From a virus: a stretch of DNA of 64,000 nt. Location of the stretch: the IMG/VR virus record IMGVR_UViG_3300009181_007093. The stretch is one strand, 5' to 3'. The notes beneath the pieces are model-generated. The model was not told the DNA's origin, did not search any database, and worked only from the letters and a program-made list of their open reading frames with translations. This document shows, in pieces, positions 60,432-64,000 of the stretch. The translations under genes were made by a program, and so were the position numbers. Within the stretch, counting starts at the first letter, position 1, and every line of letters starts with the position of its first letter.

Positions 60432-61040
60432 TTATTTTATATAGGGAAGAACTAGCAAAGAATCTATATCTATTTTATTAACTTTTTTATCATAAAATTG
60501 CTCCAGCCATCCTTTTTTGTTTCCAACGTATTCTGTATGCCCTGATAAGAACCGATTAACCGCATATCTTGTAGACTTAACATACGAATCACTCAAAAAC
60601 GCTTCCTGTAAATTGTTATTTTTTGGAGAATATTCACTTCCACATCGTAAAAGTATTGTAAAAAGAGACCTTCTCATTGATTTAATTGTCCACCATTTAG
60701 ATGGAGATATCCACATAATAGATTTTCTTTGAGTCGGACCATACTCCGATAAAATATCAATTCCTAACTTTTTTTCTATTTTCTCCATAAAGGACGCTAT
60801 GCAATTTCCCTTATTCGGATTATGAGAAAAGAAAAAAATGTCTAAATTATATAATTTTGGATGAAAAACATCTCTACAATATGTCCAATCAACTACATGA
60901 TACTTATCTCCGTCAAACCTTTTATATTGGGCAAAACTTCCTACTTCAGGTTTGTAAGGAGTTCTTATTTGTATAATTTCACTGAACTTCTTCTGTTTTT
61001 TCTGCTTTTTCTTCTTCTGCTTCTTTTTCTTCTTCTTCAT
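60432..61040 (-). CDS. Hypothetical protein (paralog of 34672-35325) with Lys-rich N-terminus
   Basis: Same motifs as the paralog; overlaps the upstream gene by 62 nt. Confidence 0.75.
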   Translation of the reverse strand: MKKKKKKQKKKKQKKQKKFSEIIQIRTPYKPEVGSFAQYKRFDGDKYHVVDWTYCRDVFHPKLYNLDIFFFSHNPNKGNCIASFMEKIEKKLGIDILSEYGPTQRKSIMWISPSKWWTIKSMRRSLFTILLRCGSEYSPKNNNLQEAFLSDSYVKSTRYAVNRFLSGHTEYVGNKKGWLEQFYDKKVNKIDIDSLLVLPYIK

Positions 61041-61533
61041 TTTCTTCCTTCTTGGAATCTACCGTTAACTTAGATTCCATTCTAAGTGTTGTTCCTGAAC
61101 TGTCTAAAAAATCATCTAAATTCTTTATGTTTATAATCTCCCAATGTGGATCATCTATTGGAACGTATTCTTTTTTAGTATAATAAAATGACTCCATCTG
61201 ATATTTATACACTTTAGCTTCAACTTCTTCTGGAGTCATGCCTGAATACAAGTCTGAACATATATTCTTACACACTCTAATTGCATCTTTCTCTATGGCA
61301 CCGCCTAACTTTATTAGAACTTGAATTGCCGCCTGTACTTTACCTTCTTTGTTATAAAGAAGATCTATTATATCTAGTTTCATTCGACCATCAATAAATT
61401 CAGCTATAGCAGTAAATTTCGCTATAATTTCACCTTTACACGGTTTGTTCCTTCCACAAACTTTAAAATACTCAGTAAAGTTTGAACCGTTTATTTCCAA
61501 AACATCATCTTTTTTTTCTTCAACTTCATTCAT
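60979..61533 (-). CDS. Hypothetical protein
   Basis: ORF downstream of dnaE. Confidence 0.7.
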   Translation of the reverse strand: MNEVEEKKDDVLEINGSNFTEYFKVCGRNKPCKGEIIAKFTAIAEFIDGRMKLDIIDLLYNKEGKVQAAIQVLIKLGGAIEKDAIRVCKNICSDLYSGMTPEEVEAKVYKYQMESFYYTKKEYVPIDDPHWEIINIKNLDDFLDSSGTTLRMESKLTVDSKKEENEEEEKEAEEEKAEKTEEVQ

Positions 61534-61543
61534 AGCATTATTC

Positions 61544-64000
61544 CTATTGTTGTTTTTTCATTGTACATTTTTCAAATTGCATAAGACAGTCTTCTTGTGT
61601 AATTGTATTATCTATTACTCCTTTTTTCATTATAGCAACTCTAAAATCATCTTTTTTATCAGATGTATTTTTACCACGACGGTTAGGCTTATGTTGGTTG
61701 CTTTCTAACGAAAAAGTAAAAAACCCATTTGAAGGTGCCTGTAGCCTCAATCTAAGTAAGTTACCTACTAAAAATTCTTCTTTCCATCTTTCCCAATCAT
61801 CTTGCCAAATAATTATTTTGTTTTCTTGTCCTGTAATATCCTCTGCGGTCAAATGATAGTATACTGTTCCTTTCTTACTTTTAGTCTTATTGGTCTTAAT
61901 AACACACACCTCAACTGGTCCAACTGAGGCACTTGGTGACCCTTTTTCCGAGTTATTTGTTACTGTAGAATAATCTCTTAAGTTATTAAATGTTAATTTA
62001 ACGTTATGATCTGGGCTGAATTCTAATGGATGTGCCAAGGAAAACCCATAATACTTCCTCTCACATGCTATGTAATTTGATATTTCCTCCTCTGTTTCGG
62101 CATCTAATTTGGCATCTAAATCATTAAAATCACCGAGTTTTGGTGAGTTTTTTTCATTATTTTTATTTTTTTCTATTGATCTATTTCTTTTGTCCCACAA
62201 CTTTTTAAAAGAATTAAGAGGGTTAAAGCTTTTCTTATTCTTAACTTTTTTGTAGTATACAACAATTTCTTTTTCTATAGTAACGCCACAATCTAAAGTA
62301 ACTGTGCCATTGGTTAGCTTTGCAATTGCACCGTCTTCATCTTTTTCGCATTTAATGCTACCTTCAACATAACGAACCTCTTCGACATCATACTTCTTCC
62401 AATAGTCCAATTTATAAGGGTTGGTGCTTTTTATATCAGATAGGTTAGTTGTTTCATTTGGAAATAAAGATTTAAACTCATTGTCATATTTTAGCATAGT
62501 CGCTATATGTCTTTTTTGCTTTTCTTCTTTTTTCTTGAAATAATTTTTATATTTTTCTGCAAACCTCCAAAGCGTTACAGGGTCACTTTCAGTAAAGCAT
62601 CGCAATCCTATCAATGGCTTTAAAACATTTGCCTCTGTTCCGAACCTTTCAAGAAAGTCTTCAAAATCTTTATACGGTTGACACTCTATAATTCTTGTGG
62701 CGGGAGCTTCACCAATACCTTTAATGTTAGAAAAACCAAAGTATATAATGTCTTCTTGCAAATCAAAACTTATTTTTGACCTATTTATATTCAAACCACA
62801 GACTTGCACACCATGCCCTTTTGCTTCCATTTTGTATTCTTTTATTTTTTCACTTGATTTTTCGCACCTTAAGATACTAGTGTAAAATTCATTTGGATAG
62901 TGAGATTTCAAGTAAAGAAGATAAGAAGAAATATATGTATATGCAACAGCATGACTGTTGCTCGTTACTATTCCGTTGGGCAAAATAAAGTTGTGTGTTC
63001 GATTGGAAACTTCAAGATCGTACATTTGATGCCTGCCCATGGGCAAGACTCGTAAAATTTTCCTAGACACCAGACTCCCGGTATTGGAGATTGAAGCATG
63101 TTCTGAAATACTTCCCACCAATCCAACGCCATTCTTCCCGTGCTGCTGTGGAAGCATGACATGCCCACTCTTATTAACATCACATCTTTTCTTCTTAAAC
63201 ACTCTTCGTTCAACATGGCATCTCGCTGTTGAACAATCGGCAACCGAAAATTTATTGGTTTGTTGCTTTGATGCTCGTAAAAATGATAAAATCCGTCTAC
63301 TTCTATCCAAATTTTTCCTTTCGTCATATCTACCTGCTTCCACTTTCGATCCGACCTTTTCCCACAACGAATTTTCTTGGTTCCCCATTTTAACTGGGCA
63401 CGCAACCAAGCTTCCATTTTTGATCGTTTTGGACTTTTCCATGCAGCTTCTGTGCATTTTGCAAATTTTTCTGGGTTTTCTTCTCTCCACTTTTTCAATC
63501 GTTCTGCTCTTTGTGCTTGTATCTCTGGGCGGGCAGATGTTTTTCTTGCAGAAACAGAAGAGGCTCTCCGATGACCTTCCGAGCGATTTGTCTTTAAATT
63601 CTTTGCTTTTATATTTTCTCGTTTTATTCTTTCGCAATCTTCGCAAGTTTTTAGATGCTTGTCTCTCGGAATCATTCTTTGAAATTCTATTTGACATCGA
63701 GATTTGAAAGTCTTTCCGCCGCCCCAGCCCAACCTTCGACACTCTCGACAAGCTGACTGGTGCTTCAGCATCAACGACTTTGATGGAAATATTTCTCCGC
63801 AACGAGCTTTTGATTCTTTTTTTGCTGGCATATTTTTCTCCGTATTCTTTTTCACAAAATATAGAAACATCTTTAGCCAGTATTTCACGAAGCGAAATTT
63901 GTCCATCCTCGGTTAAAAATTTATGATCTATGGTACAAATTATTTCATACCCATCATCAAAAACAACCTTGTGTCCTTCTAATATTCCGTGATCATGTAA
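61544..64000 (-). CDS. dnaE: DNA polymerase III alpha subunit with intein; 5'-partial
   Basis: One open frame from 64000 to the stop at 61544. C-extein starts SHAVAY...YLKSHYPNEFY...NINRS...GFSNIKGIG...ERKYYGF, followed by an OB-fold region. Confidence 0.92.
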   Translation of the reverse strand, partial: LHDHGILEGHKVVFDDGYEIICTIDHKFLTEDGQISLREILAKDVSIFCEKEYGEKYASKKRIKSSLRRNISIKVVDAEAPVSLSRVSKVGLGRRKDFQISMSNRISKNDSERQASKNLRRLRKNKTRKYKSKEFKDKSLGRSSESLFCFCKKNICPPRDTSTKSRTIEKVERRKPRKICKMHRSCMEKSKTIKNGSLVACPVKMGNQENSLWEKVGSKVEAGRYDERKNLDRSRRILSFLRASKQQTNKFSVADCSTARCHVERRVFKKKRCDVNKSGHVMLPQQHGKNGVGLVGSISEHASISNTGSLVSRKILRVLPMGRHQMYDLEVSNRTHNFILPNGIVTSNSHAVAYTYISSYLLYLKSHYPNEFYTSILRCEKSSEKIKEYKMEAKGHGVQVCGLNINRSKISFDLQEDIIYFGFSNIKGIGEAPATRIIECQPYKDFEDFLERFGTEANVLKPLIGLRCFTESDPVTLWRFAEKYKNYFKKKEEKQKRHIATMLKYDNEFKSLFPNETTNLSDIKSTNPYKLDYWKKYDVEEVRYVEGSIKCEKDEDGAIAKLTNGTVTLDCGVTIEKEIVVYYKKVKNKKSFNPLNSFKKLWDKRNRSIEKNKNNEKNSPKLGDFNDLDAKLDAETEEEISNYIACERKYYGFSLAHPLEFSPDHNVKLTFNNLRDYSTVTNNSEKGSPSASVGPVEVCVIKTNKTKSKKGTVYYHLTAEDITGQENKIIIWQDDWERWKEEFLVGNLLRLRLQAPSNGFFTFSLESNQHKPNRRGKNTSDKKDDFRVAIMKKGVIDNTITQEDCLMQFEKCTMKKQQ
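62957..64000 (-). mobile_element. Intein in DnaE (N-terminus outside the window); ends ...YDLEV...HNFILPNGIVTSN before Ser+1
   Basis: Block B ICTIDHKFLT at ~63910-63940; blocks F/G at ~62957-63030; last Asn at 62957-62959. Confidence 0.9.
62968..63831 (-). CDS. Zinc-finger + Vsr/DUF559-like PD-(D/E)XK endonuclease nested in the +1 frame inside the intein
   Basis: GGAG RBS then ATG at 63831 (MPAKK); C/H zinc motifs; KQVD...IWIEVDGFYH...QRD...LIRV nuclease core; TAG at 62968-62970. Confidence 0.85.
   Translation of the reverse strand: MPAKKESKARCGEIFPSKSLMLKHQSACRECRRLGWGGGKTFKSRCQIEFQRMIPRDKHLKTCEDCERIKRENIKAKNLKTNRSEGHRRASSVSARKTSARPEIQAQRAERLKKWREENPEKFAKCTEAAWKSPKRSKMEAWLRAQLKWGTKKIRCGKRSDRKWKQVDMTKGKIWIEVDGFYHFYEHQSNKPINFRLPIVQQRDAMLNEECLRRKDVMLIRVGMSCFHSSTGRMALDWWEVFQNMLQSPIPGVWCLGKFYESCPWAGIKCTILKFPIEHTTLFCPTE

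Follow-up and report, generated by a model that had tools for sequence, protein, structure and literature searches.

The viral DNA stretch examined here (IMG/VR record IMGVR_UViG_3300009181_007093, 64,000 nucleotides; hereafter the window) carries on its minus strand the 3' part of a phage dnaE gene whose reading frame includes an intein, and within that intein lies a separate gene for a predicted zinc-finger homing endonuclease. The best explanation for the whole arrangement, at a probability of about 0.85, is that an unsplit class-1 intein, splicing in cis, occupies the GFNK|SH site of dnaE (the bar marks the splice junction), with a nested +1 gene for a Vsr/EDxHD endonuclease that is read through in the host frame and in which stop codons of that frame are avoided.

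Under this explanation, an endonuclease gene of the free-standing zinc-finger Vsr/EDxHD type would now lie entirely inside the endonuclease-insertion loop of the intein, on the same strand and in the +1 frame. Ribosomes translating dnaE would cross it in the wrong frame, producing a disordered loop of ~260 residues between the halves of the Hint fold, and the intein would excise itself with this loop and ligate DnaE. Translation of the endonuclease would be independent, starting internally at the GGAG and ATG of its own gene, and the enzyme would presumably cleave dnaE alleles that lack the intein, leading to joint copying of intein and endonuclease into them. Stops would be kept out of the dnaE frame by selection on the choice among synonymous codons of the endonuclease gene. 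A stop codon or frameshift would then give a fractured gene with a split intein, a step that may be eased by a GTG codon and a Shine-Dalgarno-like sequence at the start of the C-terminal intein segment (IntC).

The intein frame and the nested endonuclease gene

The features of the locus are listed below by their positions in the window, with the evidence for each in brackets.

61544..62956, minus strand: dnaE C-extein (open frame and translation; Pfam HHH_6, E=6e-13; PHROG 405 DNA polymerase, E=3e-34)
62957..64000, minus strand: intein, C-terminal 348 codons (frame continuous with dnaE; no stop)
63911..63940, minus strand: intein block B, ICTIDHKFLT, with the T-x-x-H motif inside (read from the sequence; TIDH at 63934-63923)
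63071..63850, minus strand: linker of ~260 codons in the intein frame, where the endonuclease gene is read off-frame (17.5 stops expected, 0 present)
62957..63070, minus strand: IntC-like segment of 38 codons with blocks F/G and a terminal Asn at 62959-62957 (sequence)
62968..63831, minus strand: predicted homing-endonuclease gene in the +1 frame, 287 amino acids plus TAG (open reading frame (ORF), homologues and AlphaFold 2 (AF2) model)
63838..63841, minus strand: Shine-Dalgarno sequence GGAG, 6 nt 5' of the endonuclease ATG (sequence; GGAG-spacer-ATG in many relatives)
63622..63816, minus strand: two C2H2-like zinc fingers, endonuclease residues ~6-70 (CxxC...H...C repeats; Foldseek match to CTCF zinc fingers, probability 0.98)
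63016..63426, minus strand: predicted Vsr-like/EDxHD nuclease core, residues 136-272 (VIA-align matches and invariant columns)

The dnaE/intein frame is free of stops from the window edge at 64000 to the dnaE stop codon at 61546-61544, a total of 818 codons, and the continuity that an earlier note on this DNA had read from block B through blocks F/G into the C-extein was borne out by the open frame and its translation. Blocks F/G read YDLEV...HNF...VTSN and are followed directly by the +1 Ser (62956-62954), with which the C-extein begins as SHAVAYTY. The block B T-x-x-H, blocks F/G, the terminal Asn and the +1 Ser are thus all present in the window, and these residues are invariant in the alignment of relatives, the D, H, K and T of block B being invariant across 33 related inteins. 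The Pfam family Intein_splicing matched in two pieces bracketing the linker (residues 12-347) with a score of 28.1 bits against a cut-off of 35.8, the shortfall being due to the missing N-terminus of the intein; complete relatives scored 37-40 bits, and those at loci L019 and L022 exceed the cut-off. Block A and the N-extein lie past the window edge, in keeping with the earlier note. In 33 complete relatives the N-terminal junction is GFN(K/R)|S or |T, then x-x-x-x-T, and the C-terminal junction is SN|SH. The first residue is Thr in about half of the complete relatives and Ser in the others; the Thr inteins (L013, L006, L023, L043-L051 and L061-L072) begin GFNK|T-L-T-E-D-T, and Thr-1 is unusual as a class-1 nucleophile.

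Between the splicing blocks, the intein frame is rich in Arg, Lys and Ser and gave no family match, in agreement with the ~250 motif-less residues described in the earlier note. The predicted endonuclease ORF occupies 864 nt of this region and lies wholly inside the intein frame, from its ATG at 63831 to a TAG at 62970-62968. It ends 11 nt before the last intein codon (62959-62957), so that the dual-coding stretch reaches the splicing motifs, as had also been claimed.

The Hint fold was examined in a structure model of L032, the closest complete relative, whose endonuclease is 70% identical, and not in the truncated copy of the window. The L032 intein is complete at 426 residues. Residues 1-98 and 385-426 were modelled with a predicted local distance difference test score (pLDDT) of 89-97, and the ordered part matched the Npu DnaE intein (4kl5) in Foldseek with E=4e-7, a probability of 1.00 and a root-mean-square deviation (rmsd) of 1.4 over 94 columns. 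Residues 99-380 had a pLDDT of 30-50 and form a disordered insert of ~280 residues. For this close relative the model therefore predicts that the off-frame stretch forms a disordered loop within a Hint fold, the structure that the earlier note had anticipated for the intein frame.

The AF2 model of the +1 protein had a mean pLDDT of 87.6. Its N-terminus resembles tandem C2H2 zinc fingers, and it also contains the nuclease core. In the alignment of homologues the number of zinc-finger repeats differs, and a helical middle region is seen. With the whole model, Foldseek gave nothing beyond the zinc fingers except one weak match to Vsr, at rank 49; the Vsr fold was revealed by an exhaustive VIA-align search, which was needed beyond Foldseek. 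In that search the core matched Vsr (1cw0_A) with Z 10.4 and an rmsd of 3.0 over 118 aligned residues, and the catalytic domain of I-Bth0305I (3r3p_B) with Z 8.1 and an rmsd of 2.9 over 90 aligned residues, while the next unrelated rows had Z of ~7 or lower. Residues E177, D179, H183, R203 and D204 are invariant across 21 homologues, in the pattern E-x-D-x-x-x-H...R-D. Because of the zinc fingers, the invariant core and the matches to Vsr and I-Bth0305I, the +1 protein is assigned from its model as a Vsr-like/EDxHD-type homing endonuclease, the family first met beside split inteins. The nuclease that the earlier note had recognised in the +1 frame, with its own GGAG and ATG, was therefore recovered together with the Vsr-like fold proposed for it.

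Sequence searches recovered 20 homologues of the endonuclease at 34-68% identity in a 90%-clustered protein collection, and 420 representative clusters at E<=1e-3 in an exhaustive search. There was no match to the endonuclease in Pfam or PHROGs, nothing significant in a profile search of PDB sequences and no tblastn match in 50,697 deposited phage genomes; the family appears so far only in data from metagenomes and metagenome-assembled genomes. The G+C content of the overlapped stretch is 40-44%, compared with 30-33% around it, which is consistent with a foreign origin.

Dual coding and the recurrence of the unsplit layout

The number of stops expected in the intein frame was estimated by shuffling synonymous codons inside the +1 gene, with its protein and codon usage kept. 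A mean of 17.5-17.7 stops was expected and none was observed; zero stops were reached in 0 of 3000 shuffles, and the Poisson estimate for a stop-free intein frame is ~2e-8, making the chance of ~1e-6 given in the earlier note a conservative one. As a control, the other overlapping frame contains 25 stops, compared with 22 expected. An alternative genetic code was also considered and is irrelevant, since no stop codon of any kind is present.

The variation between the window and its nearest relatives was 0.52-0.54 at position 3 of the endonuclease codons, compared with 0.22-0.25 at positions 1 and 2, so that position 3 is 2-3 times more variable than the others. Identity to relatives was 0.65-0.67 in the endonuclease frame and 0.36-0.39 in the intein frame, and the linker therefore seems to be under no constraint other than to remain open. 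Diversity at position 3 falls from ~0.55 to 0.22 where the last ~40 codons of the endonuclease overlap IntC, and it does so nowhere else. The Vsr alignment reaches residue 272, so the stretch overlapping IntC seems to code for two folded segments. Selection on both frames, which the earlier note had deduced from the open frame, is supported by these comparisons of sequences, with amino-acid conservation acting on the nuclease frame and stop avoidance on the intein frame. As in a non-canonical intein, the intein frame is open through a separately started ORF in another frame, and the endonuclease frame is under purifying selection.

Loci around homologues of the endonuclease were drawn from assemblies, IMG/VR, JGI metagenomes and GTDB genomes. 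The search for nested +1 ORFs that the earlier note had proposed was productive: the host frame (frame +2 of the endonuclease) is fully open across the endonuclease in 53 of 60 distinct related endonuclease genes, often within an open stretch of ~4 kb that corresponds to the whole of dnaE. Summed over the 53 unsplit loci, 827 stops were expected from shuffling and 0 were seen. All 13 loci from the genome collection are open, and 12 of these are gammaproteobacterial, the carriers including Beggiatoa, Thiomargarita, Thiothrix, Methylococcaceae and Competibacteraceae. Three of the gammaproteobacterial genomes have no match to PF07733 (dnaE) other than the gene with the intein, so that there, judging by gene content, the overprinted layout would have to yield a working essential polymerase. 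The unsplit overprinted state is the common state of this endonuclease family (53/60) and not a rare intermediate. The proposal in the earlier note of a distinct architecture or intermediate thus stands as regards an unsplit intein with a separate +1 nuclease, while the rarity implied does not, and the kind had been reported previously.

The window itself was examined in a single assembly, and a chance or artefactual origin, through compensating indels or a fortuitously open frame, was weighed on that account. Such an origin does not fit the shuffling result, nor the presence of an identical architecture in >60 contigs that were assembled independently and stem from numerous samples and sources, with endonuclease identities of 33-71%; it is effectively refuted by these comparative data.

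The same intein with its overprinted endonuclease also occurs in at least two other host proteins, with C-exteins that begin SETMVHFYP (L017-L020, L057) and S(H/T)LVDSMK (L022, L024). The non-DnaE exteins of L017-L020, L022 and L024 gave no convincing match in Pfam or PHROGs. The presence of the element in these hosts suggests that it has moved between genes.

Split, empty and fused relatives

Seven relatives are true fractured genes with split inteins and an endonuclease of the same family (L001, L007, L008, L014, L027, L052 and L068). Their stop counts in the same frame are near expectation (14 against 12.8 in L001; 30 against 28.5 in L014), and in L014 and L052 IntN, the N-terminal intein segment, and IntC sit in different frames. 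The window has no stop between IntN and IntC and so lacks the arrangement of a fractured gene that is found in these seven. Homologues with stops in the intein frame had been named in the earlier note as a sign of an ordinary split intein; this applies to the seven, while the other 53 of the 60 are stop-free.

In the endonuclease tree the split loci fall in at least four places, with L001, L014+L052 and L068 nested among unsplit ones. A tree constrained to hold all seven in a single clade is worse by 164 log-likelihood units (p-AU 1e-76 in the approximately unbiased (AU) test), the grouping having been named only after inspection of the tree. Split inteins therefore appear, from the tree, to have arisen at least four times in this family, and the step from an unsplit to a split locus through a stop and a restart, which the earlier note had foreseen, is seen at least as often among the relatives. 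The root of the tree and the direction of change were inferred on the ground that removing many stops at once is difficult.

These split relatives also bear on the state of the window, as the locus could already be a wholly or partly split intein in which IntC together with DnaE's C-terminal portion is translated from the GTG at 63070-63068 and trans-splices with an N-terminal fragment, the open frame then serving polarity avoidance or coupling. The IntC-like segment does open with this in-frame GTG, GGGAG stands just upstream at 63079-63075, and split relatives exist in the same endonuclease family. Among scorable loci a GTG is found at the start of IntC in 37 of the 46 unsplit relatives and in 3 of the 4 split ones. 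The GTG is, however, dictated by the conserved Trp-Cys codons of the endonuclease (TGG TGY), and its conservation therefore needs no start function. Since there is no stop in the frame, all N-terminal translation would run on into IntC and the C-extein, and a cis precursor is therefore unavoidable. Stop avoidance over ~280 codons in 53 loci is what read-through predicts, and it is wholly gone in the truly split loci. An already split locus is accordingly rated improbable. Two points nevertheless weigh against the cis-splicing explanation: the conserved GTG with its Shine-Dalgarno-like sequence leaves room for some separate translation of the C-terminal half, and Ser1 of the window intein is deduced from the sequences of relatives, block A and the N-extein junction lying outside the window.

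Further relatives show empty, deleted and fused forms at the same site. L079 is an empty allele (GFNL|SHAVAY) and a candidate substrate for the endonuclease. L080, which matches L079 at 88% identity in the DNA of the N-extein, contains a 201-residue mini-intein at the same site; of the endonuclease, nothing but the first zinc finger and the C-terminal tail is left in its +1 frame. In L080:1898-2500 these two parts are joined directly in a +1 ORF that has both start and stop, and the deletion of the nuclease core therefore kept both reading frames.

In L078 a single G is missing from a GGG run just 5' of the endonuclease ATG (L078:1657-1720 compared with L051:1466-1530). This fuses the N-terminal part of dnaE and IntN to the endonuclease frame in an 859-residue product, P0023, and the old intein frame downstream is still stop-free; the fusion may reflect either a frameshift of recent origin or a sequencing error in the homopolymer. 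L094:2501-4840 (P0089) is a phage DnaE fragment that also carries a distinct mini-intein elsewhere (VVHN|CTSEG). IntN at its GFNR|T site continues in frame into a related endonuclease; neither IntC nor the C-terminal part of DnaE follows downstream, and the next gene encodes a Pyr_excise nuclease.

Such natural in-frame fusions (P0023 and P0089) would fit a mechanism in which the endonuclease is made as an IntN-endonuclease fusion by +1 ribosomal frameshifting from the dnaE frame, as would the endonuclease frame of the window, which is open for 31 codons 5' of the ATG. The GGAG-spacer-ATG is conserved at the endonuclease start, however, and in L002, L004, L005 and L010 the endonuclease frame is closed by stops only 2-4 codons before the ATG, so that hardly any space is left for a shift site; nor was a slippery motif identified. 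Production by frameshifting is thus highly improbable, and internal initiation at the ATG is preferred. Two programmed frameshifts that would place the nuclease in the intein frame were also considered and rejected, as they would not need an open intein frame.

L001:1-5859, on a 173-kb contig, has its dnaE in three pieces. Besides the split intein, a second free-standing ORF of 255 amino acids with a faint DUF4379 match separates the PHP/NTPase part from the finger part.

Relation to known systems and the origin of split inteins

Fractured genes were described by Dassa et al. 2009 (PMC2677866) as IntN-stop-spacer-endonuclease-IntC with a free-standing Vsr-like gene, and the authors' model is that the invading endonuclease gene breaks the host gene at once. 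As in those genes, the endonuclease of the window is Vsr-like, sits between the two halves of the intein on their strand and overlaps IntC with its 3' end, and the hosts are phage-type replication genes including dnaE; the seven split relatives match the published arrangement exactly. The fractured genes of 2009 have a stop after IntN, a spacer of 27-51 nt and a 3' overlap of 6-69 bp, whereas the window has no stop or spacer, and its whole 864-nt endonuclease gene overlaps the open frame, with 114 nt overlapping IntC.

Contiguous actinobacteriophage inteins with an endonuclease outside the intein frame were reported by Gosselin, Arsenault and Gogarten (bioRxiv 10.1101/2025.01.02.630785), who propose that a free-standing endonuclease gene invaded a mini-intein and state that Vsr-like endonucleases are otherwise known only with split inteins. 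In both cases the in-frame reading of the endonuclease stretch has no recognisable structure. In the actinobacteriophage inteins the Vsr-like endonucleases are antisense, and the out-of-frame gene that shares the strand is endonuclease VII-like and in frame 3, while the present element is a same-strand +1 Vsr/EDxHD gene with zinc fingers, in dnaE and with split sister loci.

An out-of-frame LAGLIDADG gene in a cyanobacterial dnaX intein was described by Phillips, DeSimone and Gogarten (bioRxiv 10.64898/2026.09.14.751524), who credit Gorbalenya 1998 with the first proposal of an out-of-frame endonuclease in that intein. In both systems the frames overlap, the endonuclease frame is under purifying selection, the extein-frame reading evolves freely and a cellular replication gene is the host, and a secondary invasion of a mini-intein is proposed for dnaX as well. 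The endonuclease family, host gene and site differ, and no split derivatives are reported for dnaX. In the intein-less ShiLan case of Arsenault et al. 2025 (PMC11855218), the host frame likewise crosses a hidden out-of-frame endonuclease gene with zinc fingers without a stop; there the mature host protein retains the off-frame insert, whereas here it would be removed by protein splicing. As these reports exist, out-of-frame or antisense intein endonucleases are already known as a kind.

I-Bth0305I is an EDxHD homing endonuclease of a group I intron in the recA gene of phage 0305phi8-36 (PDB 3R3P; PMC3239194). Its catalytic domain shares the fold of the nuclease core, with 90 of 98 residues aligned, and the invariant residues here include an E/D/H/D set (E177/D179/H183/D204) that may correspond to its active site. 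I-Bth0305I differs in its DNA-binding N-terminal region and in being intron-encoded and not nested in an intein; identity is 16%, with no significant sequence match.

What appears to be new here is the endonuclease family, its same-strand position and its direct link to split inteins. The literature searched contained no report of a same-strand +1 Vsr/EDxHD member, of its breadth across phages and bacterial chromosomes, of a dual-coded IntC overlap, or of unsplit and split states within one lineage.

The origin of split inteins and of genes in pieces has been an open question since the discovery of the cyanobacterial DnaE split intein. One endonuclease lineage at one insertion site now offers a series of empty allele, unsplit overlap (the majority), frameshifted IntN fusion, split intein (at least four times) and mini-intein, and because this natural series falls within a single lineage, the order of events becomes testable. 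The unsplit overprinted inteins may have served directly and repeatedly as the forerunners of split inteins and fractured genes, one nonsense or frameshift mutation away, and some loci may run both modes; this is put forward tentatively, as plausible but short of an even chance. In such a course the cassette would tolerate read-through in the -1 frame, and its conserved Pro-Gly-Val-Trp-Cys codons would supply the Shine-Dalgarno-like GGGAG and the GTG at the start of IntC, so that a single mutation could turn a cis-splicing gene into a working trans-splicing pair. Gene fracture would then be a second step, and not the invasion event proposed in 2009.

The relatives also include candidate Ser/Thr-nucleophile (cysteine-independent) intein pairs for protein engineering. 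Since gene callers annotate one of the two frames, such inteins and endonucleases are systematically mis-annotated, and this extends to the sole replicative polymerase genes of large sulfur bacteria.

Downstream of dnaE in the window, the ORF 60432..61040 (minus strand) begins with a poly-Lys run, MKKKKKKQKKKK. The same DNA (window 60979-61073, minus strand) encodes, in another frame, the poly-Glu C-terminus EEEKEAEEEKAEK of the upstream ORF 60979..61533, the two ORFs overlapping by 62 nt of low-complexity sequence.

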